Below are positions 17,377 to 51,522 of a stretch of DNA of 64,000 bases, in pieces. How positions within the stretch are numbered: position 1 is the first letter of the stretch; each line of letters starts with the position of its first letter. A model generated the notes under the pieces. That model saw nothing but the letters and a program-made list of their open reading frames with translations. It was not told the origin of the DNA and ran no database searches. This DNA is from a bacterium (lineage in GTDB: Bacteria; UBA8248), in NCBI GenBank assembly GCA_965242545.1, contig OZ251456.1, forward strand, positions 2,947,093-3,011,092, in the 5' to 3' direction. Made by a program: the position numbers and the translations under genes.

Positions 17377-18396
17377 CTATGAGGCGCCCAGATGGTCGGC
17401 GAGACCGCGGAGCAGTGTCTCGCGCGAGACGGCGCCGACCACCTCGCCCCCGTCCACCACCCGCAACGGCGACTCGCTCGCCAGGGACTTCGGCACCATG
17501 TCCTGAAGAACGGTCCGGCTCGCGACGGCGGGCCCGCCCGCCGCGCCGTCCGGCGGCGTCATGATGGCGCCCGCCGTCACCACCCGACCCCGCCTGGCGT
17601 CCCGCGCGAACACGCGCACGTAGTCGGTGGCCGGGCTGAGCAGAATCTCCTCCGGCACGCCCACCTGGTGAACCACGCCGTCCTTCAGGATGGCGATGCG
17701 GTCGCCTATCTTGAGCGCCTCGTCAAGGTCGTGCGTGATGAACACGATGGTCTTCCTGAGGTCGCGCTGGAGCACGATGAGGTGCTCCTGCATCTGCTTG
17801 CGAATCAACGGATCGAGGGCGCTGAAAGGCTCGTCCATGAGCAGGATTTGCGGGTCCGTGCAAAGGGCGCGCGCCAGCCCCACGCGCTGCTGCATCCCCC
17901 CCGAGAGCTGCGCCGGGTAGGCGTCCTCGTAGCCGGCGAGCCCGACGTCCTCTATCCAGCGCATCGCCCGGCGGGCGCGCTCCTTGAGCGGCACGCCCTG
18001 CACGTCGAGGCCGTAGCCCGTGTTCTCCAGCACCGTCAGGTGAGGGAAGAGCGCGAAGCGCTGGAACACCATGCTCGTGGTCCCGCGGCGAAACGCGATG
18101 AGCTCCTCCTGGGAGAGCTGGAGGATGTCCCTGCCCTCGACCAGCACCTGGCCGGCGGTCGGGTCGATCAGCCGGTTGACGTGGCGGATGAGGGTCGATT
18201 TCCCGGAGCCGGAAAGCCCCATGACCACGAAAATCTCCCCGCTCTCGACGGAGAGGCTGACGTCCTTGAGACCGAGCGCGCAGCCCGTCCTGGCCAGCAG
18301 GTCATCCTTGCCGGCGCCCTCCCGCGCCAGGGCGAGGGCCTCCTCCGGGGCGTCCCCGAATATCTTGTAGACGCTTCGTATCTCGATCAGCGGCAT
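17377..18396 (-). CDS. proV: Glycine betaine/proline ABC transporter ATP-binding protein ProV
   Basis: Walker A 'GLSGSGKST', signature 'LSGGMQQRV', Walker B 'LLMDEPFSALD', C-terminal CBS-like extension. Confidence 0.9.
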   Translation of the reverse strand: MPLIEIRSVYKIFGDAPEEALALAREGAGKDDLLARTGCALGLKDVSLSVESGEIFVVMGLSGSGKSTLIRHVNRLIDPTAGQVLVEGRDILQLSQEELIAFRRGTTSMVFQRFALFPHLTVLENTGYGLDVQGVPLKERARRAMRWIEDVGLAGYEDAYPAQLSGGMQQRVGLARALCTDPQILLMDEPFSALDPLIRKQMQEHLIVLQRDLRKTIVFITHDLDEALKIGDRIAILKDGVVHQVGVPEEILLSPATDYVRVFARDARRGRVVTAGAIMTPPDGAAGGPAVASRTVLQDMVPKSLASESPLRVVDGGEVVGAVSRETLLRGLADHLGAS

Positions 18397-18400
18397 CGGC

Positions 18401-19306
18401 TCAGCCCTCCCCCGTCGTCCTGATGAGCCGCCTTCCGTAGGCCTGCGTCACGCGGTCCATCACGATGGCGAGCAACACGATTCCCACGCCCGCCTCGAGC
18501 GCGCGCCCGACGTTGAGCTGCTGGAGACCCAGGAGCACCTCGTTTCCGAGACCGCGGGTTCCGATCATCGAGGCGATGACCACCATCGAGAGCGCCATCA
18601 TCGTGGTCTGGTTGATTCCCTGCATGATGTTGGAGAGCGCCATGGGAATCTGGACGCCGAGGAGCTTCTGCCGCTTGCTGGCGCCCATGGCGTCCGACGC
18701 CTCGACGATGTCCTCGTCCACCAGGCGAATGCCGAGGTCGGTGAGGCGAATCACGGGCGGGACGGCGTAGATCACCGTGGCGAAGACGGCGGGCACCGCG
18801 CCCAGGCCGAACAGCATGATCGCCGGAATGAGATAGACGAAGCTCGGCATGGTCTGCATGAGGTCGAGCACCGGCAGGACGAAGTTCCGCATCCGATCGC
18901 TCCTCGAAATCGCGATGCCGATCGGGATGCCGATGACGATGCAGATGATGGTGGAGACCAGCATGACCGAGAGGGTCATCATCGCGTAGTCCCAGAGCTT
19001 GGGATCCACGAGTCCGATGCAGAGCAGGCAGCCGGCCACGAGCGCGGTCACGCCCCGCTTGCGGCCGCCGGAGACGTAGGTGATCGCGACCACGGCGGCG
19101 AACACGACGATCCACGGCAGATCGCGCAGGAAGTGCTCCAGGCCGACCAGCAGCGCGAGGAGGCTGTCCGATACGGTCTCGAAAACGACGCCGTATTCCG
19201 AGACCAGCCATTCCACGAAAGCGTTGGCCCACTTGTTGAGCGGCAGGTTCAGGGCCTTGGGCCACTCAACCGCCCATTCGGGAAGCAGTCCCCTCAAAAA
19301 CGACAT
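18401..19306 (-). CDS. proW: Glycine betaine/proline ABC transporter permease ProW
   Basis: Multi-transmembrane permease with EAA-like loop 'EASDAMGASKRQKLLGVQIPMA'. Start is 4 bp from the proV stop. Confidence 0.9.
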   Translation of the reverse strand: MSFLRGLLPEWAVEWPKALNLPLNKWANAFVEWLVSEYGVVFETVSDSLLALLVGLEHFLRDLPWIVVFAAVVAITYVSGGRKRGVTALVAGCLLCIGLVDPKLWDYAMMTLSVMLVSTIICIVIGIPIGIAISRSDRMRNFVLPVLDLMQTMPSFVYLIPAIMLFGLGAVPAVFATVIYAVPPVIRLTDLGIRLVDEDIVEASDAMGASKRQKLLGVQIPMALSNIMQGINQTTMMALSMVVIASMIGTRGLGNEVLLGLQQLNVGRALEAGVGIVLLAIVMDRVTQAYGRRLIRTTGEG

Positions 19307-19352
19307 GGCGAGCGGGCCTCCTCAAAGATTGCGCGCGCCGCGCGGGCGCGTC

Positions 19353-20402
19353 TCAGGCGGAGGCGAGGGCCGCCTCGACCTTTTTGGCGACGTCGGCCGG
19401 CACCCATTTCTTCCAGACCTTGTTGGTCTTGAGAAAGTGGATGGCGGTCGCCTTGGCGTCGCCGCCTGCCTCCTTCTCCAGATAGGCCAGCGCCTTCGAG
19501 ACGACGCTGGACGGCAGGGTGTACTTATCGAGGAAGGCGATGATCTTCGGATTCTCCGCCGCGAACTTCGCGGTGACCGACTTCGGCAGCTCCACCGACG
19601 GATAGGCGACCGCCTTCTTCGGGTCGCCCATCGCCTCCTCGCCGCCTTTCTTGAGCGCCGTGACGTGCTTCATCATCTCGTCCCAGTCGGCCTTGTTCCA
19701 GGCGGGCTCCTCGAGCTTGACGAGGTCGAGCTGGCCCAGGAGCGGCGTCGGCGCCCAGTAGTATGCCAGCACGGGCTTCTTCTTGATGTAGGCGCCCTTG
19801 ATGGCCGCCGCCAGCGCGCCGCCCGAACCCGGCCGGAAGTTCGTGTAATGCTTCTCGAGTCCGTAGGCGCGGAGCTTCACCGTGTTGATGAGCTCGCAAC
19901 TCCAGCCCGGGATGCAGTTCACGAACCGGCCCTTGGAGGGCTCCTCGGGATCCTTGAAGAGATGCTTGTATTTCGGGAGATCGAACACCGATTTGAGGCC
20001 CGGGTTCGCCTTCTGGATGAAGCGCGGGATATACCAGCCCTGCGCGCTGTCCGGCGTGTTGACGCTCAGACGCTTGATCTTTTTGCTTTTGAGGGCGGCG
20101 TCGTATTGATCCTTGATGTTCTCGTACCAGAGCTCCATGACCAGATCGTTCTTGCCCTTGTAGTGCGCGGCCATGATCGGCACGGTGCCGCCGTAAGTCA
20201 TCCTGACACTGCAGCCGTAGCCGTGCCGCAGGATGAAGGCGGTCACCTGGTCGTGGAAGTTCGCGCTGTCCCAGTTGAAGTCGCCGATGTGAACCTTGCA
20301 GGCGGCCTTCGCCTCCCCGGGCGCGGCTAGGGGGGACGCCGCGACGAGGGCGGCGAAAGCGGAAATCGCGAGAATCCTGAACTTCATGGCTTTGAGTCTC
20401 AT
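19353..20402 (-). CDS. proX: Glycine betaine-binding periplasmic protein (ProX/OpuAC), copy 1
   Basis: Signal peptide 'MRLKAMKFRILAISAFAALVAASPLAAPGEA', then a substrate-binding fold (NWDSANFH..., GWYIPRF...). Start chosen at 20402; the track extends 20 codons further. Confidence 0.85.
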   Translation of the reverse strand: MRLKAMKFRILAISAFAALVAASPLAAPGEAKAACKVHIGDFNWDSANFHDQVTAFILRHGYGCSVRMTYGGTVPIMAAHYKGKNDLVMELWYENIKDQYDAALKSKKIKRLSVNTPDSAQGWYIPRFIQKANPGLKSVFDLPKYKHLFKDPEEPSKGRFVNCIPGWSCELINTVKLRAYGLEKHYTNFRPGSGGALAAAIKGAYIKKKPVLAYYWAPTPLLGQLDLVKLEEPAWNKADWDEMMKHVTALKKGGEEAMGDPKKAVAYPSVELPKSVTAKFAAENPKIIAFLDKYTLPSSVVSKALAYLEKEAGGDAKATAIHFLKTNKVWKKWVPADVAKKVEAALASA

Positions 20403-20526
20403 GGCTGGTCCCCCGTCATTGCGCGCGCGGCGCGGTGAAAAACGGACGAATCTTTTCTCCAATCACCAGCCATCATACACGGACGGGCGCGAAACGCAAA
20501 CCGCCCCGCCTTCGCGCGGGCGCGTC

Positions 20527-21558
20527 TCAGGCGGAGGCGAGCGCCGTCTCGACCTTTTTGGCGACGTCGGCCGGCACCCATTTCTTCCAGACCTTGTTGG
20601 TCTTGAGGAAGTGGATGGCGGTCGCCTTGGCGTCCCCGCCCGCCTCCCTCTCCAGGTAGGCCAGCGCCTTCGAGACGACGCCGGACGGCAGGGTGTACTT
20701 ATCGAGGAAGGCGATGATCTTCGGATTCTCCGCCGCGAACTTCGCGGCGGCCGACTTCAGCAGCTCCGCCTTCCGGTAGGCGGTGGCTTTCCGGGGGTCG
20801 CCCATGGCGCTCTCCCCGTTCTTCCTTACCGCCGCCGCGCGCTTCATGATCTCGCTCCAGTCCGCTTCATTCCAGGCGGGCTCCTCGAGCTTGACGAGGT
20901 CGATCTGTCCCTGGAGCGCCGTCGGCGCGTAGAAATAGGTGAGCGCCGGCTTCTTCTTGAGATAGACGCCCTTGATGGCCGCCGTAAGCGCGCCGAGCGA
21001 ACCGGGGCGGGTGTTGGTGAAGTGCTTCTCGAGTCCGTAGGCGCGGAGCTTCACCGTGTTGATGATCTCGCAATACCAGCCCGGAATGCAGTTCACGAAC
21101 CGGCCCTTGGAGGGCTCCTCGGGATCCTTGAAGAGATGCTTGTATTTCGGGAGATCGAACACCGACCTGAGGCCCGGGTTCGCCTCCTGGACGAAGCGCG
21201 GGATATACCAGCCCTGCTCGCCGTCCGGCGTGTTGACGCCCAGCATCCTGATATTGCCGCTCTTCACGGCGGCGTCGTATTCGGCCTTGATGTTGTCGTA
21301 CCACACCTCCATGATCAGATCGTTCTTCCCTTCGTAGTGCGCCGTCATAATCGGCACCGAGGCGCCGTAAATCAGTCTCACCCTGCAGCCGTAGCCGTGC
21401 CGCAGGATGAAGGCGGCCATCTGGCTGTGGAAGTTGGCGCTGTCCCAGTTGAGGTCGCCGATGCGGACCTTGCAGGCGGCCTTCGCCTCCCCGGGCGCGG
21501 CGAGGGGGGACGCCAGAAGTGAAGCGAAGACAACAATCGCAAGAGCTCCGAGTCTCAT
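20527..21558 (-). CDS. proX: Glycine betaine-binding periplasmic protein (ProX/OpuAC), copy 2 (tandem paralog)
   Basis: Roughly 80% identical to copy 1 along the full length; the C-terminal ~60 aa are almost identical. Confidence 0.85.
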   Translation of the reverse strand: MRLGALAIVVFASLLASPLAAPGEAKAACKVRIGDLNWDSANFHSQMAAFILRHGYGCRVRLIYGASVPIMTAHYEGKNDLIMEVWYDNIKAEYDAAVKSGNIRMLGVNTPDGEQGWYIPRFVQEANPGLRSVFDLPKYKHLFKDPEEPSKGRFVNCIPGWYCEIINTVKLRAYGLEKHFTNTRPGSLGALTAAIKGVYLKKKPALTYFYAPTALQGQIDLVKLEEPAWNEADWSEIMKRAAAVRKNGESAMGDPRKATAYRKAELLKSAAAKFAAENPKIIAFLDKYTLPSGVVSKALAYLEREAGGDAKATAIHFLKTNKVWKKWVPADVAKKVETALASA

Positions 21559-25345: not shown

Positions 25346-26437
25346 TCAAGCCTCGTCCTCGAGGTAGCCGCCGAGCGCGTCGCGGATGAAGTCCTCCGGG
25401 TGCCCCTCTCTGATGAGCATGAAGCCCTCCACCAGGCACTCGAGCTTCCGCCGCTCCCGGTCGAGGCGCGTCTGCCCCCTCCGGCTCAGGAGCCTCTCCA
25501 CGTCGTCCATCGGCGCGCCGTCGAGCGCCCATTTCAACCCCGTCTTGAGAAGAGGCTCCTGAATCCACTCGAGGCGCTCCTCAATCGCGCCGCTTCCCTC
25601 CCGGGCGGCGATGCCCGCGAGCTCGACGCACTGGCCGATGATGTCGACCGCCGCCTGGGCGGACGGAGAAAACCGGACGCCGGGCAGGCGCTCGTAATCC
25701 GCCTCGCCCTCCGGCAGAAAGGCGACGAGGCGCGCCCTCGCGCGCTCCTCGCTCACGCCCTCGATGATCGCCAGCGCGCCCTCGATGGCGATTTCCCTGT
25801 TCCTCTCCATCGCGCCGAGGGCGGAGTCGATTTGCCGCACGAGGATCGTCTCCGCCTCGCCGGAGGGCGTCTGATCCACCAGCATCCGCAGGCCGGTGGC
25901 GAAAATTCCGTCCGGGCTTCGCTCCAGGGCGGGCTCGAGGGAGAGCAGACCGTGCCGCTCCGCGCGCGCAGCGAGGGCGGCGACCACCGAAACCGCCTGC
26001 CCGGCCGCGCTCCCGGGAGCATGAAACGCGGCGAGCTCTTCTTCCACCGTCCGCTCCAGCGGGGGAATGGCGTCATCGGCGGGGCCGTCGAACGTGATGT
26101 CGCCGTGCTCCTTCATGGCGTAGGCGGTCTCCATCAGCAACTGACGCGCCTCGACCACCCGGTCGCCTTCGTCCGCGACGCCTCTTTTGATCTCTTCCCG
26201 AATGCGGCGGGCGTTTTTCGCCGAGACGTTTCCGAGCACCCGATCCACCACCCGCGCCTCCGCGCTCCGAAGCGCCCTGGCGAGAACCTCGAGGTCGATT
26301 CGCTCGATGACGCGGCGCAGCGCGCGGCCCGACATCTCCGCGAAGGGCGTCAGGTCGGGATTCTCGCCGGGGGAGAAAAAGCGATGCCCGGGGCCTTCCG
26401 GGCCGGCGTTCATCCAGCGGTCGCCATCAAGATTCAT
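25346..26437 (-). CDS. FliG / MgtE-N domain-containing protein
   Basis: 'RALRRVIERIDLEVLARALRSAEARVVDRVLGNVSAKNARRIREEIKRGVADEGDRVVEARQLLMETA' resembles the FliG C-terminal / MgtE-N helical repeat (…NMSKRAAEMLREDLE…VEEAQQ…). Occupies the position downstream of yidC where jag is usually found. Confidence 0.5.
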   Translation of the reverse strand: MNLDGDRWMNAGPEGPGHRFFSPGENPDLTPFAEMSGRALRRVIERIDLEVLARALRSAEARVVDRVLGNVSAKNARRIREEIKRGVADEGDRVVEARQLLMETAYAMKEHGDITFDGPADDAIPPLERTVEEELAAFHAPGSAAGQAVSVVAALAARAERHGLLSLEPALERSPDGIFATGLRMLVDQTPSGEAETILVRQIDSALGAMERNREIAIEGALAIIEGVSEERARARLVAFLPEGEADYERLPGVRFSPSAQAAVDIIGQCVELAGIAAREGSGAIEERLEWIQEPLLKTGLKWALDGAPMDDVERLLSRRGQTRLDRERRKLECLVEGFMLIREGHPEDFIRDALGGYLEDEA

Positions 26438-26511: not shown

Positions 26512-28155
26512 TCAATTCTCCTCGGCCAGCTTCGGGGGCTGGACGGAGCGGTTCACGTAGAACTGCTGGGCGATGGAGAGCAGGTTGTTCACCAGCCAGT
26601 ATATCACCAGGCCCACCGGAACGGGATAGAAGACGAACATGCCCGTGAAGATGACGGGCATGAACATCATCATCTTCGCCTGGGTGGGATCGCCCGCGGT
26701 GGGGGTCATCTTCTGCTGCAGGAACATCGACGCGCCCATGAGCACCGTATAGACGTGGTAGGGGTCCTGCGCCGAAAGGTCGGTCACCCAGCCGAAAAAG
26801 GGCGCGTCGCGCAACTCTATTGACACCAGAAGCGCCTCATACAGCCCGAAGAAGACGGGAATCTGTATCAGCATGGGCAGGCAGCCCATCATCGGGTTGA
26901 CCTTGTGCTCCTTGTAGAGACCCATGGTCTGCTCGTTCAGCCTGGTCTTGTCGTCCTTGTAGATCTCCCGAAGCTGCGCGATGCGCGGCTGGAGTTTCTG
27001 CATCTCCTTCATGTTGCGCATGCTGACGTGGGTGAGGGGATAGAAGACGATCTTCACCAGGATGGTCAGCAGGATGATGGCCACGCCCCAGTTGCCCGCC
27101 ACGGCGTGAAGGGCGCGCAGAATCGACATGAGCGGCTTGGCGATGAAGGCGAACATCCCGTAGTCCAGGGAATCCTCCAGGCCGACGCCGAGCGCTTCGA
27201 GATGCTCCACCGCCTTGGGCCCCACGTAGACGTCGAACGCCGCCTCGACGCTCCCTCCCCGCGAGAGCGGGACGATGGCGGCGTACTCGCTGAGGGTCTC
27301 CGTCTTGCCGAGCAGGCGAACCTCCGCGCCGCCCGCGCCGCTTCGGGGGATGAGCGCCGCGATGAAGTGCTTCGATTGCAGCGAGGTCCACTTGAGGCCC
27401 TCGCCGTGGGTGATCGCCTTCCCTTCCTCGGGATAGTCGTATTCGATCTCCTCGCCCACGAAGCTCATCGGCCCCTCGATGACGCCGCCGTAGGTGTTGC
27501 CGTCGCTCCCGCCCACGCGCGGGCCCCAGACGAGGCCGATGGTCTCTTTCCCGGAGGGGAGGGAAACCCGTATCCCGGCGCGAACGTTGAAGCTGTTGTG
27601 GCGAAAGGTGAGCGCCTTCTCCGCCGAGAGGCCGTCGGCGCCCCGGTAAAGGAAGCGGACCGTCCCCTCGGGGTTCGCCTCCGAAAGCGACAGGTCGCCG
27701 CCCTCGACCTGATAGACCGCCTCGTTCAGCCGCTGCGCCGTCTTTCCGCCCCAGAAGAAGAGCGGCCGCACGTCCGGGCGGCCTCCGGGCGCGAGCTCGA
27801 CGAAGCTCTTGTCTCCCTGCCTGTATTTCAGAAGACGAGCGGACAGAAAGCCGGCGCCCCGGCTCGTCAGATCATACACCGCGTCGCCCACGTCCACGCG
27901 AACGCGCCGCTGCGGCGCGGGAGCAGAGGGCGCGGAGGCGGCGGGAAAAGCCTCGGTCGCCGGCGGGAGGGCGGAGGGCGGCGACTTCAGGGGCGCGCTC
28001 GCGGCGCTCGTTCCCCCCGCGCTTCGCGCCGCGCGCGCCTTGGCCGCCCGCTGCTTTCGCGTCTGCTCCTCCTCCATCGGCCGCACGACGAGGTATTGCC
28101 AGCCGATCAATATCGCCATCGACAGGACGGCGGCGAGAATCGCGTTTTTTTCCAT
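26512..28155 (-). CDS. yidC: Membrane protein insertase YidC
   Basis: N-terminal transmembrane helix, large periplasmic domain, and the conserved C-terminal five-helix core (…GCLPMLIQIPVFFGLY…). Confidence 0.9.
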   Translation of the reverse strand: MEKNAILAAVLSMAILIGWQYLVVRPMEEEQTRKQRAAKARAARSAGGTSAASAPLKSPPSALPPATEAFPAASAPSAPAPQRRVRVDVGDAVYDLTSRGAGFLSARLLKYRQGDKSFVELAPGGRPDVRPLFFWGGKTAQRLNEAVYQVEGGDLSLSEANPEGTVRFLYRGADGLSAEKALTFRHNSFNVRAGIRVSLPSGKETIGLVWGPRVGGSDGNTYGGVIEGPMSFVGEEIEYDYPEEGKAITHGEGLKWTSLQSKHFIAALIPRSGAGGAEVRLLGKTETLSEYAAIVPLSRGGSVEAAFDVYVGPKAVEHLEALGVGLEDSLDYGMFAFIAKPLMSILRALHAVAGNWGVAIILLTILVKIVFYPLTHVSMRNMKEMQKLQPRIAQLREIYKDDKTRLNEQTMGLYKEHKVNPMMGCLPMLIQIPVFFGLYEALLVSIELRDAPFFGWVTDLSAQDPYHVYTVLMGASMFLQQKMTPTAGDPTQAKMMMFMPVIFTGMFVFYPVPVGLVIYWLVNNLLSIAQQFYVNRSVQPPKLAEEN

Positions 28156-28182: not shown

Positions 28183-28467
28183 TCAGGGAACCGGATCGTT
28201 CCCTCCTGGATGAAATGGATGGCAGCGTCCTATCCGGCGGACGGTGAGCCATAAAGCCCGCATGGGCGCGTGCCGGCGAAAGGCCTCGAGCGCATAGCGG
28301 GAACAGGAGGGCGAAAAACGGCAACTGCCCGGCATCAGGGGGGACAAAACGAACTGATAGCCCCGAACCAGGATGATCGCCGCCGTGGTCGCCGCCCGGG
28401 AGACGGGACCGACCTCTTTCTTACGGCGCCGCTTTTTCACGGAAAGCGTCGCGGAACGCCCCTTCAA
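28183..28467 (-). CDS. yidD: Membrane protein insertion efficiency factor YidD
   Basis: 'RGYQFVLSPLMPGSCRFSPSCSRYALEAF..HG' hallmark. Overlaps the 3' end of rnpA; the true start is probably internal. Confidence 0.7.
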   Translation of the reverse strand: MKGRSATLSVKKRRRKKEVGPVSRAATTAAIILVRGYQFVLSPLMPGSCRFSPSCSRYALEAFRRHAPMRALWLTVRRIGRCHPFHPGGNDPVP

Positions 28468-28768
28468 TATCCTCTAGCCTCGCTTTCGCCATCGAACCTC
28501 TCGCAACGGCCACAAGGTCAGCGCCCGGGGGGAGATGCGCGGCGCGGCGGCGGAACGCCTCCCGCAGAAGCCGCTTGGCGCGATTCCTCGCAACGGCTCC
28601 CCCCACCCGACGCGACGCGATGACGCCAAGCCGTGCGCACCCCCCCGAGGAGACGGGCAGGACGTGGAGCGTGAAGTGCGGGAACCTGCGCCTGCGCCCC
28701 CGCCTCAGGACGGCGGCGAACTCGCGCCCCTTGCGAATCCGGCGCCCCGGCGGGAAGCCCTCGCTCAT
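28421..28768 (-). CDS. rnpA: Ribonuclease P protein component
   Basis: Basic ~115-aa protein with 'RLGVIASRRVGGAVARNRAKRLLREAFR' (RNR motif region). Follows rpmH. Confidence 0.8.
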   Translation of the reverse strand: MSEGFPPGRRIRKGREFAAVLRRGRRRRFPHFTLHVLPVSSGGCARLGVIASRRVGGAVARNRAKRLLREAFRRRAAHLPPGADLVAVARGSMAKARLEDIEGAFRDAFREKAAP

Positions 28769-28802: not shown

Positions 28803-28943
28803 CTAGACGGAGACGCCGAGCCGCTTTCGGCCCTTGGCCCGGCGGCGCCTGATGATCGCGCGCCCCCCGGTGGTCTTCATCCGCTGACGGAAGCCGTGCG
28901 TCTTCGCCCGCTTTCTTCTGTTCGGCTGATAAGTCCGTTTCAC
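28803..28943 (-). CDS. rpmH: 50S ribosomal protein L34
   Basis: Translates to [46 protein letters not shown] from a GTG start; an in-frame ATG five codons upstream at 28956 is the alternative. Not in the ORF track because it is under 60 aa. Confidence 0.8.
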
Positions 28944-28959
28944 GAAACGCTCCATGTCC

Positions 28960-29265
28960 CGGCGTCAAGGCCGATTCCTTCGTTTCACGAAGGCGCGCCT
29001 GTCAAGAACCGGGCGTAAGGTAGCCGCCAAAGCTCCGATTGTCAAGAACCCCCCGCCGCGCCGGAAGCCGCTCATCCTGAAAAAATCACGGCGGCGCCTT
29101 CTTTTCGCCCGCCGCCTCCGCCGAGGAGCCGGCGTTTTTGTTCGCAATCAACAAAAATTTCGGAAAACGCCTCTTTTTTCGTGAAAGGCGCTTGCCTTGA
29201 AGGTCGTTTTGTGGAAAACTCCCTTCTTTCATCAGATTCGCGTCTCGCCCTTGTGGAAAAACGAT
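28960..29265. promoter_or_regulatory. Candidate oriC / dnaA promoter region with DnaA-box-like repeats
   Basis: Two 'TGTGGAAAA' sites (reverse complement TTTTCCACA, one mismatch from TTATCCACA) at ~29210 and ~29253. Two 'TGTCAAGAACC' sites at ~29000 and ~29040. Inverted 'TTTCACGAA/TTCGTGAAA' pair. Classic rpmH-dnaA intergenic location. Confidence 0.35.
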
Positions 29266-29326
29266 GGCCGTCGCATGGACCGAGGACGCCTCGCCACGCA
29301 ATGGCCTTTGCCCATCGGTTCACGCC

Positions 29327-30658
29327 ATGACGAGTCTCTGGCTTCGCTGCGCGGAAAAAATCCAAGAAGAGGTCTCCGCGAAAACGTTTGATCGCTGGTT
29401 CGCCGGGCTCAGGGAGACGGACGCGAACGAGTCCTCCCTAACGCTCCAGGCGCCCAATTCGTTCACGGCGGGCACCCTGCGCTCGCGGTATTGGGGCATT
29501 CTCATCGACATCCTCAAGCAGGAAGCCGGGCCGGGCGTGTCGCTCATCCTCTCCTCGAACAACGAGGAAAACGGCGCGGGCGCGCCGGACACGGCCGAAG
29601 AGGCTCCGCCGGAGAGCCGCCGCGCGCCCGGACGCCCCGACTTTCTGAATCCCAAATACCATTTCGGGAATTTCGTGGTGGGCGCGTCGAACGAGTTCGC
29701 CCACGCCTGCGCCACCCGCGTGGCGGACGGCATCGAAGCCACGTTCAACCCGCTATTCATCTACGGCGGCGTGGGGCTGGGAAAAACCCATCTCCTGCAC
29801 GCCATCGCCCAGCGGATTCTCGACCGGCGCCCCGAGGCGCACGTCTTCTACACCTCGGCGGAGAACTTCATCAACGATCTCATCGCCTCGATCAGGCGAA
29901 ACCGCATGGCCGCGTTCAGAAACAAATACAGAAAAGCGGACGCGCTGATGGTAGACGACGTCCAGTTCATCGCGGGCAAGGAGCGCACCCAGGAGGAGTT
30001 CTTCTTCACCTTCAACGCCCTCCACGAGGGGAGAAAGCAGATCATCATCACGAGCGACAAAATGCCGAAGGACACGCCGGGACTGGAGGAGCGCCTTCAG
30101 GCGCGCTTCGTATGGGGGATGATGGCGGACATCGGCGCGCCCGACTTCGAGACCAAGGTGGCCATCCTGCAAAAGAAAGCAGGCGAGCGGGGGTTTTTCT
30201 TGTCCCGGGAAGTCGCCCACTACATCGCCGAGAAGGTTCGCTCCAACATCAGGGAGCTCGAAGGCTGCCTCATCAAACTCATCTTTCACGCCTCCCTGTA
30301 CAACATCGATATCGATCTGCCCGTCGCGCAGGAGGTTCTGCGGGGCATCATCCGGGACCCCGCACGCAACTCGACGGTGGACAACATCCAGAGAATCGTC
30401 GCCGCCCATTTTCAAATCCGCGTCGCCGACATCAAATCGAAAAACCGCTCGCGCTGCTTCGCCACCCCCCGGCAAATCGCCATGTATCTTTCGAGAAAAC
30501 TCACGACCGCCTCGACCACGGACATCGGACGGCGCTTCGGCGGCAAGGATCATTCCACGGTGATTCACTCCACCAACAAGATCGAGGAACTGGTCAAGAC
30601 GGACCAGGCCACCTCGGACGCCATTCAGGCGATTCGCCAGAAGATAGAACTCTCCTGA
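29327..30658 (+). CDS. dnaA: Chromosomal replication initiator DnaA
   Basis: AAA+ Walker A 'GGVGLGKTHLLHAI', Walker B 'LMVDDVQF', C-terminal DNA-binding domain. Start at 'MTSLWLRCAEKIQEE' (29327). Confidence 0.9.
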   Translation: MTSLWLRCAEKIQEEVSAKTFDRWFAGLRETDANESSLTLQAPNSFTAGTLRSRYWGILIDILKQEAGPGVSLILSSNNEENGAGAPDTAEEAPPESRRAPGRPDFLNPKYHFGNFVVGASNEFAHACATRVADGIEATFNPLFIYGGVGLGKTHLLHAIAQRILDRRPEAHVFYTSAENFINDLIASIRRNRMAAFRNKYRKADALMVDDVQFIAGKERTQEEFFFTFNALHEGRKQIIITSDKMPKDTPGLEERLQARFVWGMMADIGAPDFETKVAILQKKAGERGFFLSREVAHYIAEKVRSNIRELEGCLIKLIFHASLYNIDIDLPVAQEVLRGIIRDPARNSTVDNIQRIVAAHFQIRVADIKSKNRSRCFATPRQIAMYLSRKLTTASTTDIGRRFGGKDHSTVIHSTNKIEELVKTDQATSDAIQAIRQKIELS

Positions 30659-31026
30659 AAAGAAAAGATCAAGGGCAAAAACGGGCGGAATAAAGCAAAA
30701 TCCTCTCGTCCGGGAGCGGAAAAACCGCCCAGAGGGCGCGAGAGCGCAAAAAACGCCCCAGCGACCGCCCAAACGCCGGGGCGGCCCGCGCCACACACAA
30801 TGCGGCGCAAACCGGAAAATCCGGGGCGCGCGCCGAAAAACGGCGCGCAGAGAAGCCCATGGTGAGCCGTTCTCGGTCGAGAGCGACTCCCAAATCATGG
30901 AAAATCCAGGCAAACGAGCGAAGCGTTTATGAAGGGCTGTCGCAAGGGCGGGCGTTCATGAGCCGCATGATATTTTGCGCGTCCGTTGCTTTGGAGGGGG
31001 GGCATGGTAGTACTGCTTTCGCCTGA

Positions 31027-31132
31027 GGCAATGGCGGGAGGCCAGCCATGAGACTCAAAACCATGAAGTTCAAGATTCTCGCGATCTCCGTTTTCGCCGC
31101 CCTCGTCGCGGCGTCGCCCCTCGCCGCGCCCG
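31027..31132 (+). repeat. Displaced copy of the proX promoter-proximal region, ribosome-binding site and signal peptide
   Basis: ~105 bp nearly identical to the 5' end of proX copy 1 (reverse complement of ~20380-20425 plus the signal-peptide codons): '...GCCAGCCATGAGACTCAAAACCATGAAGTTCAAGATTCTCGCGATCTCC...'. Encodes MRLKTMKFKILAISVFAALVAASPLAAP, then diverges exactly at the signal-peptidase site. Confidence 0.6.
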
Positions 31133-31162
31133 CGCATTCGGAGTCTCCCGCTCCGAGAGCTG

Positions 31163-32242
31163 TTGACCACCAGAGGTTTCCTCCTCCTTCCCAGCGGTTT
31201 TATCCTCCTCTTCCCGGCTGGTTTGTTCCCCTCCCTGAGCAGCGCAGGCGTCGGCAGGTGGGGGCCTGCATCAAGACCTATTGCCTTTCCTCGCTCTTTT
31301 CTCCGCATGGCGGTTGTTCCCCTGCTCTTTGCGCACAGTGTTGCGAGGCTTTTTACCGATCTCCCGATTCGCCTATGGTTTCTCATTGCCGCTCTGTTCG
31401 GTGTCCTCTCCCTCTCGGCTCTTGGGCCTCTCATAATACTTACTCACTGCCAAGCGATTTTTCGCCGACCAAAAGACTCGCTCAGAGATTACGGGCTTGG
31501 TCTCAGGCGGGCATTCGAGTTGATGAAGCAGGGAGTTGCAATTGAACGAATCAACACGGGTGAAGAGGCTGTGGTGAGCAACCGTACCCGCGAGGAAGTG
31601 GAGGGAGGAACGATGAGCGAAAATCAAAAGTGGTACGGAAAGACCATCATAGAAACCATAAACGGAAGAGAATTCATCGACAGGAGGATTTTACCGGGGA
31701 CCTTCGAGGATTCATACCAAGTAGTGAAAGACGTCGGGACGACACAAGAAGAAATAATCGGAAGCGTCCTGATGTCCTCGTCAGGATGGAGATACATGGC
31801 AGACGAAATAGAACGGAAATACGTGATCAAAAAACTCAGGGAATATCGCGCCGCGAAAATACCGGCCAGAAGATACCTCAACGAACTGAAACGAGAAGTC
31901 GGGCAAGGAAACATCACCCTGGAAAAAGCGGAGAAACTAGCCACAAAATACTTGGCGGATCGCGATCAGTACCCGAAAAGACTAGTCGAAAGATGCCTTG
32001 CGGAACTGGTACGAAAATCCTATATAAGGGGAGGCATCACCCTGGAAATAACAACGGAAGTGGCCAAAAAATACCATATCGACAAGACCTATGAGGAACT
32101 GTGCGCAAATTACCTTGCCAAAAACCCAGCAAATTCCCTTGTCAAAATAGAAATCCCGGAAGAAGAAATATCGTGGACGGGATGCCTTGCGATCATCGGA
32201 ATAATAACTCTTTCGATCTTAGTGCAAACGTGTGGAGCATGA
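31163..32242 (+). CDS. Hypothetical membrane protein in the low-GC insert (start uncertain)
   Basis: The 3' ~700 nt are clearly lower GC (~48%) with AT-rich codon usage, in contrast to the surroundings. N-terminal transmembrane helices, a C-terminal transmembrane helix 'GCLAIIGIITLSILV', and a long helical K/E-rich middle. Possible starts at 31163, 31307 (MAVVPLL) or 31612 (MSENQKW). Confidence 0.45.
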   Translation: MTTRGFLLLPSGFILLFPAGLFPSLSSAGVGRWGPASRPIAFPRSFLRMAVVPLLFAHSVARLFTDLPIRLWFLIAALFGVLSLSALGPLIILTHCQAIFRRPKDSLRDYGLGLRRAFELMKQGVAIERINTGEEAVVSNRTREEVEGGTMSENQKWYGKTIIETINGREFIDRRILPGTFEDSYQVVKDVGTTQEEIIGSVLMSSSGWRYMADEIERKYVIKKLREYRAAKIPARRYLNELKREVGQGNITLEKAEKLATKYLADRDQYPKRLVERCLAELVRKSYIRGGITLEITTEVAKKYHIDKTYEELCANYLAKNPANSLVKIEIPEEEISWTGCLAIIGIITLSILVQTCGA

Positions 32243-32586
32243 GCGGCGGGAGCAAAGGAATCCGCAGACTACAAATCTACGAGGATGAGGGCGCATGGCG
32301 CATCATGCATTGGAGATTTGAAACCGGAGACTGGCACCACGAGGGCCCGTTTGAAACCGTCTATCAGGCAACGGACAAGGCGGCGGAAGTGGCCGGCAAA
32401 AGCGTAGGGCGCGAACTGGCGGAACTGGCTACGATCGTAACAATCGCCATGATGGCCGCCCGGGCGCTGAATGAGGAAGGATGGAGCATCACGCGCTCCG
32501 GGCTGGGATATAGCACAACCACAAAATCAAAGCCGAAAGGCGAACCGCGAAACGGCTCCGAAAGCGCAGAAGCAAGAGCGCGATAG
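32239..32586 (+). CDS. Hypothetical small protein (115 aa), translationally coupled to the upstream gene
   Basis: ATGA start/stop overlap with the 31163..32242 gene. Starts 'MSGGSKGIRRLQIYEDEGAWRIMHWRFETGDWHHEGPFE...'. The track ORF starts 46 codons earlier in the overlap. Confidence 0.4.
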   Translation: MSGGSKGIRRLQIYEDEGAWRIMHWRFETGDWHHEGPFETVYQATDKAAEVAGKSVGRELAELATIVTIAMMAARALNEEGWSITRSGLGYSTTTKSKPKGEPRNGSESAEARAR

Positions 32587-33004
32587 CGCACAGACTGGCG
32601 GTCGAAACCAAAGAGAATCCGATCATAAAGCGGCTCATCCGCAAGGGCGGAAACCCGCGAGACATCGGGAGAATCTACGGCGCGTCTCAATACGCCGTCC
32701 TGAAACGGACGGCGAGGGTAAAAAACGGGAATCAACCGTTGCGATTCTCACCTGCCTACAAAGATCGCGAAGGTTGTGGAAAGGGTTGTGAAAAAGGATG
32801 TTAGAATCCCATGGCTCCATCCCGCTCCACGTAAAAACGATCGGCGAAATGCGCTTATCCACACATGAGATCACGCCCCGTCTCTCGGGAAAGGCGCATT
32901 TTTTCAAACTTTCGGGCGGTTTTTCACAAATTCACCGACCCTGCTACTACTGCTTTTCAAATGTTGAATCAGAATTCAGAAGCAACAGCTCCTGAGAATA
33001 TCCC

Positions 33005-34120
33005 TTGCGCCTCACCGCACTGACCCTCAGAAATTTCAGGAACTATCGGGAACTCGAATTTCGGCCGCATGAGAGTTTCAACTACATTTTCGGAAGCAAC
33101 GGAGCAGGCAAGACGAATCTGCTGGAGGCGATTTACTATATCTCCCATCTTCGCTCCTTCCGTCGGATTTCAAGGGAAAAAATGGCCCTGCATGGGGGAG
33201 AGGGAGTCTACGTGTCCGGCGCGTTCCGGCGCGACGGAGATGGAGGGGAGACGAAACTGGAGGCCGCGTTCCGGGGACGCGAGAGGAAATACAAGAAAGA
33301 CGGGCGCGAGGTGAGGAGTTTGATGCCTTACCTCGAGAGTTCGCACGTCGTCGTGTTCTTTCCGGAGACGACCGGCGTCATCAAGGAGGGACCGGGGCCG
33401 AGAAGACATTTTTTCGACGGGGCGATAGCGGCGGTCGAGCCCGGGCACATGGAGGATTCCAGGCGGTATGCGAAACTGCTCTCCGAGCGGAATTACTTTT
33501 TGAGGAACGGTGGCGAATCTGCTACAATTCAGGTTTGGGGAGAGCAGTTGATCAAGATCGCCGCCCGCATCATCGCCCGCAGGAAATCGTATGTAAAATC
33601 GCTGACGAACCGATTGAATCGCCTGGAGTCCCTGTTCGGGGAAACCCGAAGCTCCAGGGCGTCGGTGTCTTACGAAACGGGAGACTTTGCGGGCGAAGCC
33701 GGGGAGGCGCGGGAGGACATAGAGCAAGGCCTCTCTGAAACTGCTCAAAGATTGATGAAGGAGGAGAGGGCGAGGAAGAAGACGCTCTGGGGTCCGCAGC
33801 TGGATGATTTCAGGCTGTCCTGGGACGGGCGGCGAGCGCGGGACGTCGCCTCCCAGGGGGAGCAGCGCCTGATAACGATACTGCTGGTGGCGGCGAACGC
33901 CGAGGAGTACAGCGGCAGGAGGGGAGAGAGCCCGGTCGTGCTTCTCGATGACCTGGGCTCCGAACTGGACGCGGTCAGAAGGAAGCGGGTGCTGCTGTTC
34001 TTGAGCTCCCTGGGAGCGCAGACGTTCATTACGTCGGCCGAGGAATCCGCGTTGCGCGAGAGCGGCGTCGAGGGAAAAGATTTTCTGGTTCGAGACGGAA
34101 GAGTTGAAAGCGTAGGGTGA
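33005..34120 (+). CDS. recF: DNA replication and repair protein RecF
   Basis: Walker A 'GSNGAGKTNLLEAI', signature and Walker B/D-loop 'VVLLDDLGSELD'. Apparent TTG start. Confidence 0.85.
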   Translation: MRLTALTLRNFRNYRELEFRPHESFNYIFGSNGAGKTNLLEAIYYISHLRSFRRISREKMALHGGEGVYVSGAFRRDGDGGETKLEAAFRGRERKYKKDGREVRSLMPYLESSHVVVFFPETTGVIKEGPGPRRHFFDGAIAAVEPGHMEDSRRYAKLLSERNYFLRNGGESATIQVWGEQLIKIAARIIARRKSYVKSLTNRLNRLESLFGETRSSRASVSYETGDFAGEAGEAREDIEQGLSETAQRLMKEERARKKTLWGPQLDDFRLSWDGRRARDVASQGEQRLITILLVAANAEEYSGRRGESPVVLLDDLGSELDAVRRKRVLLFLSSLGAQTFITSAEESALRESGVEGKDFLVRDGRVESVG

Positions 34121-34155: not shown

Positions 34156-36618
<2,463 letters not shown>

Positions 36619-36825: not shown

Positions 36826-39255
36826 ATGGACGACCTCCGCGAAGTCAGCATTGAGCAGGAGATGAGCGCCTCTTTCATGGACTACGCGATGAGCGTCATC
36901 ATCGCGCGCGCCCTGCCCGACGTTCGGGACGGGCTCAAGCCGGTGCAGCGGCGCATCCTCACCACGCTGAACGACCTGGGTCTCGCGCACAACAGGCCGT
37001 TTCGCAAGTGCGCGAAAATCGCGGGGGACGTGAGCGGAAACTATCACCCGCACGGCGAGGCGGTGGTCTATCCGGCGCTGGCGCGCATGGCGCAGGACTT
37101 CTCCCTGCGGGGCCTCCTCGTGGACGGGCAGGGCAACTTCGGCTCGGTGGACGGCGACCCGCCCGCGGCCATGCGCTACACCGAGGCGCGGATGACGCGG
37201 CTCGCCGAGAACATGCTCGCCGACATCGAGAAGGATACCGTCGATTTCATCCCCAACTACGACAACACGCGAACGGAGCCTTCCGTTCTTCCCGCCCGCG
37301 TGCCGAACCTTCTGCTGAACGGCTCCACCGGCATCGCCGTCGGCATGGCCACGAACATCCCGCCCCACAACCTGGGCGAACTTTGCGACGCGCTCGTCCG
37401 CCTGCTGGAGAAGGAGGACGCCTCGACCGAGGAGATTCTCCGGAAGATGCCGGGGCCCGACTTCCCCACCGCGGGCATCATCTACGGCCGCGCCGGAATC
37501 AGGAGCTACTACGAGACGGGGCGCGGCTCGCTTCAGATACGGGCCAAGGCGATGGTGGAGGTCAGCGCGAGGAGCGGCCGCCAGTCCATCGTGGTGACCG
37601 AGATTCCCTACGCGCTCAACAAGTCGCGGCTCATCGAGAAGATCGCGGAACTCGCGCGCGAGCAGAAGATCAGGGAGATATCGGACATCAGGGACGAGAG
37701 CGACCGGAGCGGAATGCGCATCGTCATCGACCTGAAAAGAGACGCCGTGGGCGGCGCGGTGCTGAACCAGCTCTACAAGCACACCCAGATGCAGACGAGC
37801 TTCGGCGTCATCCTCCTCGCGCTCGTGAACAACCAGCCGCGCGTGATGGGCGTGAGGGAGATGCTCTCCCACTTCCTCCGCTACCGCCGGGAGATCGTCC
37901 TCAGACGCAGCCGCTTCGACCTCGACAAGGCCGAGAAAAGGGCGCACATCCTCGAGGGCTACCGCATCGCTCTCGACGCCATCGAGGAGGTCATCCGGCT
38001 CATCCGGGGGAGCAAGACGCCCGAGGAGGCGCGCGACGGCCTCATCGGGGGCTTCGGCCTCTCCCGGCCGCAGGCCCAGGCCATCCTGGAGATGCGGCTT
38101 CAGCGCCTCACGGGCCTCGAGCGCGACAAGATAGAGGCGGAATACGAGGAGCTTCAGAAAACCATCGAACACCTCCGGAAGGTGCTCGTGGATCAGAGCC
38201 TCCAGACCGCCATCATCAAGGAGGAGCTCCTTGAGGTGAAGGAGAAATTCGCGGACGAGAGAAGAACCCGGATTGTGGACGAGGCGGTCGAGATCTCCCT
38301 GGAGGACATGATCGTCGAGGAGGACATGGCGGTCGCCATCTCGAATTCGGGATACATCAAGCGAAACGCCGTCAGCCTCTACCGCTCCCAGCGGCGCGGC
38401 GGCAAGGGCGTGATGGGCATGGGAACGAAGCAGGAGGATTTCGTCGAGCAGCTCTTCATCGCCTCCACGCACGACTACATGCTGTTCTTCACCTCGCGCG
38501 GCCGCTGCCATTGGCTGAAAGTCCACGAGATTCCGCAGGCGGGCCGCGCGGCGCGCGGCAAGGCCGTCGTGAACGTGCTCCGGCTGACGGCGGGCGAGAC
38601 CGTCTCCGCCGTCATGCCCGTCCGCAGGTTCGAGCCGGATCGCTACGTCATCATGGCGACCAGGCGGGGCGTGCTCAAGAAGACGCAGCTCGCGGCGTTC
38701 AGCCATCCGAGGGCGGGCGGCATCATCGCGCTCAGCCTCGACGACGGCGACGAGCTCATCGGGGTGGGCCAGACGAACGGCGGTCTCGACGTGTTCATCG
38801 GAACGAGAAGCGGCAAGGCCATCCGCTTTTCGGAGAACAGGATTCGCGCCGTGGGTAGAAGCGCGCGGGGCGTGCGCGGCATCCACCTGGCGAAAGAGGA
38901 CTACGTGGTGGGCATGGAGGTCGTCTCGCCGGGGGACGTCATTCTCACCGCCACCGAGCGCGGATACGGCAAGCGCAGCCGCGTGGACGACTACCGACTC
39001 ACGAACCGGGGCGGCAAGGGGGTGATCAACATCAAGGTGACGGAGAAGAACGGGCCGGTCGTCGGCATCAGGCGCGTGACCGAGGACGACGAGTTCATGC
39101 TCATCACGAGCGGGGGGCAGCTCATCCGCTCCCGCGTTCAGGACGTCTCCGTCATCGGACGCGCCGCGCAGGGCGTCCGGCTGATCGGCGTCAAGGAGGG
39201 AGACCGCGTCGCGGCGCTGGCGCGCATCGAGGAGAACGGAAGCGGCCCTTCGTAA
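36826..39255 (+). CDS. gyrA: DNA gyrase subunit A
   Basis: Active-site region '…HPHGEAVVY…', catalytic Tyr region 'RYTEARMT', C-terminal beta-pinwheel repeats. Confidence 0.95.
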
Positions 39256-49690: not shown

Positions 49691-51522
49691 GCGATATCAT
49701 CGGAATCGACCTGGGCACCACGAACAGCCTGGTCGCCTCCGTCAGGGAGGGCGAGCCCGCGATTCTGGCCCCGGAGGGCGAGCGCGGCATCGTGCCCTCC
49801 GTGGTGAGCTTTCGCCCCGACCGCGTTCTGGTGGGCGACGAGGCGCGGGACGAGCGCGTCTCCAACAGCCGCAACACCGCCTTCTCCGTCAAGCGATTCA
49901 TGGGCAGGGGCTATGAGGACGTCAAGGAGGAGATGCGCCGCCTGCCCTTCGACGCGGACCCCGGGAAGAAGGAAGTCGTTCACGTCCTGGCCCAGGGGCG
50001 CTCCTACAGCGCGCCCGAGATCAGCGCGCTCGTGCTCAGGCGCCTGAAGGCGCGGGCGGAGAAGGCGCTGGGCCGTCCCGCGCTCAGGGCCGTCCTCACC
50101 GTTCCGGCGTATTTCAACGACGCCCAGCGCCAGGCGACGAAGGACGCGGGGAGGCTCGCGGGCCTTGAAGTGCTTCGCATCATCAACGAGCCCACGGCGG
50201 CTTCCCTCGCCTACGGGCTCCATGAGCGAAACCGCGGCGTCGTCGCGGTGTATGACCTGGGCGGCGGGACGTTCGACGTCTCGATCCTGCGAATCAAGGA
50301 GGGCGTGTTCGAGGTGCTCTCGACCGGCGGGGACACCCACCTGGGCGGCGATGACTTCGACCGCGCGATTTCCCTGCGCATCCGGGATGAGGTTCTCGAG
50401 CGGCGGGGCGTGGATCTGGGCGAGACCCCCGAGGCGATGGCCGAGCTCGCTGTTCTGGCGGAGCGCGTCAAGAAGACGCTCTCGGAGAGCGATTCGGCGG
50501 AATACGAGCTCGACGATCCGGGAGGCGTCCCGCTCGGCCACGAGGGGCGTCTCGCCCGCGAGGAGCTGGAGGCGCTGCTCGCGCCCATCGCCGAGCGGAC
50601 GCTGGCCCCCTGCCGGCGCGCGCTTGAGGACGCGGGCCTCTCGCCCGGGGAGGTGGACGAGGTCGTTCTGGTGGGCGGCTCCACCCGAATGCCCCTCGTC
50701 CGCCGGATGGTGGCGGATCTGTTCAAGAAGCAGCCCCACGCGGACATCGACCCCGACGAGGTGGTGGCGCTGGGCGCCGCGATTCAGGCGGACATCCTGG
50801 CGGGCGGCGTGAAGGACATGCTGCTGCTTGACGTGACGCCGCTTTCCCTGGGCATCGAGACCATGGGCGGCGCCATGGGGTGGATCATTCCCCGAAACAC
50901 CACCATCCCCGCGAGCGCGAAGGAGACCTACACCACGTTCAAGGACAACCAGACGGGCGTGGACATTCACGTGCTCCAGGGAGAGCGCGAACTGGTGAGG
51001 GACAACCGCTCGCTCGCTCGCTTTCGTCTGGCGATTGACCCCGCTCCGGCCGGCCTCGCGCGGGTGGAGGTGACGTTTCTGATCGACGCCAACGGCATCC
51101 TGAACGTGACGGCCCGCGACCTGCGGAGCGGCAAGGCGGCCTCGGTGGAAGTCCAGCCCTCCTACGGGCTGACGGACGAGCAGGTCGAGCGCATGCTGAT
51201 GGAATCCTTCGAGCACGCGGAGCGGGACGTCCACTCCCGACAGGTTCTGGACGCGAGGAACGAGGCGGAGACCATCCTCATGGCCACGGCGCGCGCTCTC
51301 GGCGACTATGGAGAAGGCGCCGTCTCTCCCGAGGAGCGGGCGGAAATCGACGAGGCGGTGAAAGCTCTGGAGGAGGCGCGCCGGGGGGAGGAGCCGGACC
51401 TGATTCGGGAGGGCGTCGACGCGCTCAACGCCGTCACGACGCCGCTCGCCGAGCGGATGATGGACAGCGTTCTGAAATCGGCTTTGGAGAACAAGAGGGT
51501 GAGCGAGGCCCTGAAGGACTGA
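49687..51522 (+). CDS. hscA: Fe-S cluster assembly chaperone HscA (Hsp70)
   Basis: '[14 protein letters not shown]', '[12 protein letters not shown]'. GTG start overlapping the hscB stop (GTGA). The track ORF begins at 49498 in an out-of-context extension. Confidence 0.9.

Follow-up and report, generated by a model that had tools for sequence, protein, structure and literature searches.

Why is dnaN missing between dnaA and recF in this bacterium, and what is the DNA that lies there instead? The locus was examined in a 64-kb stretch (hereafter the window) of the 3.09-Mb contig OZ251456.1 (assembly GCA_965242545.1, positions 2,947,093 to 3,011,092; GTDB lineage UBA8248). In the window, dnaA (29264-30658, + strand; Pfam Bac_DnaA, DnaA_N and Bac_DnaA_C) is separated by 2,346 bp from recF (33005-34120, + strand; SMC_N, with a TTG start). 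The original prediction, which was made from the letters of the window, had set these boundaries at 30658 and 33005, as the open reading frames (ORFs) and Pfam domains confirm, and had taken the whole interval for foreign DNA that replaced dnaN. On balance, the interval is probably explained by two separate events of very different age, namely an ancestral gene order that lacks dnaN, and a recent insertion of 2,111 bp in one strain.

Absence of dnaN from the locus in the window and its relatives

The presence of dnaN was determined by tblastn with E. coli DnaN. No dnaN gene was detected in the dnaA-recF interval or elsewhere in the 64-kb window, in agreement with the earlier observation that no beta-clamp ORF lies between the two genes. 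This negative result is meaningful because E. coli DnaN does find its counterparts in ten outgroup loci, even where identity falls to 22%. The sole match in the window, a chance alignment of 53 amino acids (aa) at 50890-51045 (E=0.01) inside a 674-aa ORF, was rejected as a remnant of dnaN.

Gene order was compared with that of related loci, labelled L001-L036. When the DnaA of the window was used to scan a collection with a single genome for each species, 30 loci were obtained, and metagenome relatives were added separately. In 17 loci (L001-L016 and L020), recF directly follows dnaA across a spacer of ~229-260 bp; the DnaA proteins of these loci are 59-83% identical to that of the window, and their labels include Nitrospinota, Nitrospinaceae and Tectomicrobia. 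The metagenome relative L031 has dnaA and then recF, as in the lineage of the window, and the conserved spacer of 229-260 bp between the two genes is found in 21 relatives (L001-L016, L020, L031-L034, L036). Loci L017 and L018 have dnaA, an origin module and then gyrB, with recF missing too. In both of these (L017 2660-3440, L018 11330-12155), a module of a DnaA box and (CTA)4-5 is followed by ~550 bp without a convincing ORF before gyrB begins, and their DnaA proteins are ~60% identical to that of the window.

No dnaN is present within 10 kb of the locus in the 23 relatives; the outgroups, which belong to the Bdellovibrionales, Planctomycetota, Firmicutes and Acidobacteriota, keep dnaA-dnaN. 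The window resembles the canonical dnaA-dnaN-recF-gyrB cluster in having rpmH-rnpA upstream and divergent from dnaA, recF-gyrB-gyrA downstream in the usual order and orientation, and a GC-skew switch at the locus. It differs in that dnaN does not come directly after dnaA: neither here nor at the loci of the 23 relatives does it intervene between the origin spacer and recF, which L017 and L018 also lack. Since 23 relatives have no dnaN at this place, the order is ancestral, an inherited trait of the clade that was not caused by the insert, and this is an outcome that the original prediction had itself named as refuting it. The proposed loss or replacement of dnaN by the insert is thus not borne out, as relatives that share the same dnaN-less order have a short, intact spacer and no insert. 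The classical origin cluster seems to have been eroded stepwise in this group. A literature search turned up no papers on dnaA or dnaN for names beginning with Nitrospin.

Extent and junctions of the insert

The GyrB of the window falls in a 90% identity cluster with ten other sequences, all of which come from metagenome assemblies, and these metagenomes appear to be sponge-derived. Three conspecific contigs carry an empty site: L032 (95-96% DNA identity to the window) between positions 8618 and 8619, L033 (97.1%) between 3754 and 3755, and L034 (97.3%) between 438 and 439. A fourth, L036, has a GyrB 98.3% identical to that of the window and a 235-bp dnaA-recF spacer, the comparison in this contig being one of spacer length. 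The BLAST breakpoints in the window, 30664 and 32776, match the empty sites of L032, L033 and L034, in each of which TGAAAAGAA is joined to GTGGAAAG; in its wider setting the site reads ...CTCTCCTGAAAAGAA followed by GTGGAA(A/G)GAGTTGTGG... in all three.

By this comparison the insert occupies 30665-32775 (2,111 bp, + strand), has flanks that are collinear with the empty sites, and starts 6 nucleotides (nt) past the stop codon of dnaA. The earlier reading was therefore right that DNA has been inserted here, but not that it fills the entire 2.3-kb interval; its claim of lower-GC foreign DNA at an origin-proximal position is upheld. The junctions are blunt, as comparison with the empty sites revealed no shared nucleotide, target-site duplication, microhomology or recombination core, and a repeat search found no terminal inverted repeats at the ends of the insert. 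A 12-nt tandem, GGTTGTGGAAAG, at the right junction consists of the native distal DnaA-box pair and 4 nt of the insert. The exact fit of the empty sites to both flanks means that the arrival of the insert removed no native sequence. The insert is missing from the conspecific contigs, and the proteins of its two genes, ORF1 and ORF2, occur in no other assembly behind a collection of 15 billion proteins, and hence the insertion is judged to be strain-specific and recent.

A further conspecific contig, L035 (4,143 bp; GyrB 99.3% identical), ends ~18 nt inside recF, at the origin spacer. This end could be due to strain variation at the site or could be a mere assembly break in AT-rich DNA.

Content and composition of the insert

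The insert has a mosaic content. Its left end, at 30665-30900, is a non-coding leader that is GC-rich and A-rich and forms successive short hairpins. The folding of the leader is stronger than expected (z = -5.1 on the + strand and -4.3 on the - strand), with no shuffled sequence folding as well, and it has neither an Rfam match nor a frame-specific coding signal.

Further along, at 31028-31132 (+ strand), blastn and alignment identified a 105-nt segment copied from an OpuAC gene, spanning its ribosome-binding site and signal peptide. It is 91% identical to native sequence on the opposite strand (20318-20422), and the similarity stops at about the end of the signal peptide. The ORF that the copy opens (31048-31545) has no coding signature past the similarity. 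The native gene (19353-20402, - strand; Pfam OpuAC), whose 5' end resembles the fragment, belongs to a glycine-betaine-type ATP-binding cassette transporter operon (17377-21558, - strand) with an ATPase (17377-18396), a permease (18401-19306) and tandem OpuAC substrate-binding paralogues by Pfam (19353-20402 and 20527-21558), the first of which is the one that resembles the insert copy. An imperfect tandem repeat of 21-24 nt (~2 copies, CCAGAGGTTTCCTCCTCCTTC-like) is located at 31170-31233, between the OpuAC fragment and ORF1.

ORF1 (31307-32242, + strand) encodes an orphan membrane protein of 311 aa and has an alternative form of 209 aa that begins at ATG 31613, with GGAGGGAGG ahead of the start. 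Hydrophobic segments at residues ~20-48 and 288-311 agree with its earlier description as membrane-anchored, and the helical part of that description agrees with a single-sequence AlphaFold2 model, which is all-helical at low confidence (predicted local distance difference test, pLDDT, 43). The protein carries an internal 41-aa repeat (repeat D1), and the gene has a frame-specific coding signal with a third-position GC content (GC3) of 0.51-0.56. ORF2 (32239-32586, + strand) encodes an orphan of 115 aa, and its ATG (32239-32241) overlaps the TGA of ORF1 (32240-32242) as ATGA, so the overlap of the two genes is as first described. A single-sequence AlphaFold2 model of ORF2 (pLDDT 52) has the order beta-beta-beta-alpha-alpha-beta-beta, and a Foldseek search of the Protein Data Bank (PDB) with this model gave nothing significant (best E=0.37).

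Neither protein could be recognised at first reading, and neither was matched in the homology searches. Both ORF1 and ORF2 found only themselves in a word-indexed search of 5.8 billion clusters, as did ORF1 in a full phmmer search against 1.84 billion representatives, and there was nothing significant for the insert proteins in Pfam, PHROGs, PADLOC, NCBIfam or PDB sequences. A tblastx comparison of the insert with all loci produced scattered low-complexity noise only, apart from the OpuAC piece. RNA genes were also sought; the insert has no Rfam match at gathering thresholds or at E<=1, and no tRNA or tmRNA. A group II intron was ruled out, as there is no Rfam intron match and the insert does not start with GUGYG.

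At the right end, a stop-free frame (32517-32801, + strand) has no ATG, GTG or TTG and contains '...NPIIKRLIRKGGNPRDIGRIYGASQYAVLKRTAR...'. The existence of this frame had been described correctly, but the further proposal of a decayed helix-turn-helix of a transposase or recombinase was a visual impression only and is matched by no profile or homologue: the frame has no match in Pfam at E<=10, NCBIfam, PADLOC, PDB sequences or the 5.8-billion-cluster search, and its sole match is a weak one to a PHROG HicB-like family (E=0.1). The frame has a coding-like bias and is in the -1 frame relative to ORF2. A programmed -1 frameshift joining the two was considered and rejected, as there is no slippery heptamer. 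The frame crosses the right junction into native DNA, which suggests that the inserted fragment was cut arbitrarily.

The GC content of 31600-32990 is 50.5%, compared to 64% in the flanks and 66% in the whole window; the drop that was first described is therefore real, but less steep than the 48% against 68% given for it. It is also uneven, at 45% in the core of ORF1, 58% in ORF2 and 47% in the native spacer. The codon usage of the cassette is foreign, with a frame-specific coding signal and with GC3 values of 0.51-0.64 in the frames of the insert compared to 0.72-0.91 in native genes.

The native dnaA-recF spacer

The remainder of the interval, 32776-33004 (229 bp, + strand), aligns with the spacers of the relatives and is predicted to be an origin-unwinding module. 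The perfect DnaA box TTATCCACA at 32855-32863 was present as first reported, but it belongs to this native spacer, which is conserved in all relatives, and not to the insert. A trio-proximal box, TTTTTCACA (32920-32928), has two mismatches to TTATCCACA, and the boxes at the same position in relatives have 0-2. It is followed by a 12-nt spacer, AATTCACCGACC, that includes a GC cluster and another, weak box, and then by the DnaA-trios CTG CTA CTA CTG (32941-32952), which read 3'-GAC GAT GAT GAC-5' on the other strand. In the window the run of trios continues CTT TTC. A T/AT-rich stretch comes after the trios both here and in relatives, and runs of three to five CTA are conserved at the trio position across the clade, including L017 and L018.

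DnaA boxes are also found further from the trios. A degenerate distal pair, GTGGAAAGGGTTGTGAAAAA, is located at 32775-32795; on the minus strand at this position, the box is a perfect TTATCCACAA in several relatives. Upstream of dnaA, in the rpmH-dnaA spacer, there is a pair of TTTTCCACA boxes on the - strand (29210-29218 and 29252-29260), and relatives have two or three boxes at equivalent positions. The distal box beside the junction (32783-32792) reads TTGTGAAAAA in the window and TTGTGGAAAA in L032, L033 and L034, a G-to-A change that weakens the box (two mismatches compared to one). This difference may be due to relaxed selection after the insertion, or to chance.

According to the published rules for basal unwinding (PMC8287927), the DnaA box may carry up to two mismatches, the spacer does not exceed 16 bp and is most commonly 13, and the trios, of which there are three or more, have a central A and usually read 3'-GAT-5'. 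A motif scan of the native spacer detected such a box, at least three trios within 16 bp of it, the orientation of known origins, and the AT-rich stretch. The dnaA-dnaN spacer of a Firmicute control, L024 (Weissella), reads TTTTCCACA-GTATCCACA-GCCC-(CTA)5-AT-rich, and this spacer and that of L026 (Peptostreptococcus) have the layout and orientation of the module in the window. The GC content of the spacer is 0.47, compared to 0.66 for the window, and the cumulative GC skew reaches its minimum at 30-32 kb of the window. A replication origin is therefore predicted here, and it is probably bipartite, with boxes on both sides of dnaA.

How the insert may have arisen

The account in two events runs as follows. 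The ancestral order in this lineage, labelled Nitrospinota or Tectomicrobia, is rnpA-rpmH / dnaA / origin module / recF-gyrB-gyrA, with dnaN presumably elsewhere in the genome and a dnaA-recF spacer of ~235 bp in place of the dnaA-dnaN spacer of Bacillus, with the same basal unwinding architecture. In one strain, a mosaic of 2,111 bp was then inserted bluntly, 6 nt past the stop codon of dnaA and ahead of the first of the distal DnaA boxes, comprising the hairpin leader, the 105-nt OpuAC copy, the orphan two-gene cassette and a start-less remnant cut at the right junction. The fragment probably arrived by non-homologous capture at a break, of an end-joining or template-switch type, and would earlier have had an opuAC paralogue as its neighbour, in a mobile element or the genome of a relative. 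Such capture would be passive, the insert having moved without machinery of its own.

The insert would have been tolerated because both dnaA and the box-trio-AT unit are uninterrupted. In B. subtilis, the distal DnaA boxes work when moved by 132-462 bp, and the box-trio unit is position-sensitive (PMC6669920). Both ORF1 and ORF2 run in the direction of dnaA and of replication, and could be expressed by read-through from dnaA. With low confidence, they may be seen as an accessory membrane-associated module from the cargo region of a mobile element.

Similar cases are the strain-specific islets of orphan genes, or filler DNA taken up by illegitimate recombination. The insert is like these in being present in one strain, in its foreign composition, in its mosaic content with a fragment of a host-type gene, and in having blunt junctions and no genes for mobility. 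It is unlike them in lying directly beside a predicted origin-unwinding module, and its donor and mechanism are putative.

Several points weigh against this account. The hairpin-rich left end recalls elements that transpose as single-stranded DNA. The heptamer AAAGATC occurs near both ends, at 30664-70 and 32760-66, and might exceed chance, although the pair is subterminal and is probably coincidental. As its identity is only 91%, the 105-nt copy did not come directly from the native gene; its source would have to be either a third paralogue or a related donor. The junctions were read from assembled contigs, and the origin itself is predicted from motifs and GC skew only. A sliding clamp is essential, so dnaN must be elsewhere in the genome, outside the 64 kb searched.

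The alternative that survives best, although it is unlikely, is that the insert is a discrete mobile element that makes no duplication, such as a non-autonomous or decayed element of the IS200/IS605 or IS91 type or the remnant of an island, which may prefer a site after dnaA or by a DnaA box. Like IS200/IS605 and IS91 elements, the insert has no target duplication, no terminal inverted repeats and one hairpin-rich end. Its blunt insertion, its foreign composition and its position 6 nt past the stop of a conserved gene would also fit, and the start-less frame at the right end might once have encoded a DNA-binding protein. Unlike such elements, it has no HUH transposase or TnpB. No transposase or other mobility protein, including integrase and relaxase, was found for any ORF of the insert in Pfam, PHROGs, NCBIfam or PADLOC; no recombinase was found either, and the junctions have no att-type shared core. 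A second copy is absent from both the window and the 36 related loci, and neither the DNA of the insert nor the ORF1 protein has a match in phage, plasmid or IMG/VR collections. The right junction cuts an open frame, as would be expected of an arbitrary fragment rather than of a defined end.

It is improbable that the cassette is a toxin-antitoxin or defence-like module, in which ORF2 and the frame downstream would form a frameshifted HicB-like antitoxin or regulator, with ORF1 as a membrane effector. The ATGA overlap of the two genes would be consistent with such a module, and the predicted fold of ORF2 is followed by a basic linker and the helix-turn-helix-like frame in -1 phase. The weak HicB-like match points the same way, as do the top Foldseek matches, which are RNase-H-like folds. 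However, every one of these matches is non-significant, the models of both proteins are of low pLDDT, no PADLOC or Pfam match was obtained, there is no HicA-like partner, and no slippery sequence that could programme a -1 frameshift was seen on inspection.

Slightly less probable still is an assembly artefact, in which the 2.1 kb would be chimeric or misjoined DNA in the contig and not present in the organism. That the insert and its proteins occur in one contig only, among about 15 billion proteins, would be consistent with this, as would the conspecific contigs that have no insert and the break of L035 just inside recF. However, both flanks resume collinearly at the same nucleotide, which is not usual for a misjoin, and searches of phage and plasmid DNA, common control DNA included, gave no match. 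The diverged, lineage-specific copy of the OpuAC signal peptide points instead to a related biological donor.

A very small probability was given to the cassette being a functional origin-proximal module, with a membrane-anchored factor and a small DNA-binding partner that modulate DnaA or the origin or exploit origin dosage, or being the cargo of a new duplication-free element that inserts beside DnaA boxes. If either were true, the locus would be a natural experiment on a putative bipartite origin, showing that its spacer can be lengthened by 2.1 kb. Displacement of dnaN by the foreign DNA, for which there is only the co-occurrence of an interval without dnaN and foreign DNA within it, can practically be dismissed, as the 23 relatives without dnaN, including the four conspecific contigs, have a short conserved spacer and no insert, and the exact empty-site junction shows that no native DNA was lost on arrival.

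Neighbouring genes

The genes rpmH (28803-28955), rnpA (28421-28768), yidD (28183-28467) and yidC (26512-28155), all on the - strand, form the divergent left arm of the origin cluster. These were identified as ORFs whose orthologues are at the same place in all relatives, and their Pfam labels were taken from the annotations of L032 and L033. Adjoining yidC is a gene for a 363-aa protein (25346-26437, - strand), to which a FliG_C domain can be assigned from the precomputed annotation of the L032 orthologue. Genes commonly found beside yidC are jag and mnmE, and so a FliG_C gene in this position is unusual.

The true start of dnaA is probably ATG 29327, giving a protein of 443 aa, as the DnaA proteins of relatives align from residue ~19-22 and L033 and L036 annotate 443 aa. 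The first 21 codons of the listed ORF (29264-29326) are thus probably untranslated, and the proteins of the conspecific contigs begin MTSLW. The upstream DnaA box at 29252-29260 sits just ahead of the ATG of the longer ORF.

Downstream of recF are gyrB (34156-36618, + strand) and gyrA (36826-39255, + strand), also identified as ORFs. The spacer between these two genes is 208 bp in the window, 126 bp in L001 and ~800 bp in most relatives. The ~800-bp spacers of L002-L014 (for example, L002 15237-16036) contain only long GC-rich frames without obvious identity.

Comparison with known origins and implications

The dnaA gene of Helicobacter pylori is presumably not followed by dnaN. The oriC1-dnaA-oriC2 arrangement of this species is like that predicted for the window in being a bipartite origin split by dnaA in a Gram-negative bacterium, and unlike it in having other flanking genes, other box sequences and no insertion (PMC8235120, PMC4285127). 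Close parallels are also seen with the bipartite oriC of B. subtilis, in which clusters of DnaA boxes flank dnaA on both sides (PMC6669920, PMC8287927), and where the rightward DnaA box of incC is separated by ~12-13 nt, including a GC cluster and another, weak box, from trios of the 3'-GAT-5' type, beyond which the sequence is T/AT-rich, all as in the window (PMC8287927). The window differs from B. subtilis in that the module is followed by recF and not dnaN, that 2.1 kb lie between dnaA and the module, and that the likeness here is one of motifs only. According to a review on the canonical cluster, the origins of many bacteria lie among other genes. Current understanding is not overturned by any of these results.

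What the analysis does correct is a tempting misreading, as the absence of dnaN beside dnaA is a trait of the lineage and not damage done by an insertion. It also provides a well-supported, if still predicted, origin for an uncultured and apparently sponge-associated Nitrospinota-like clade. As the box-trio-AT module lies between dnaA and recF, it would have stayed with dnaA when dnaN left the locus. Two proteins are added that have no detectable relatives among about 15 billion sequences, and the insert that encodes them marks where such an origin tolerates extra DNA, between dnaA and the distal DnaA boxes.

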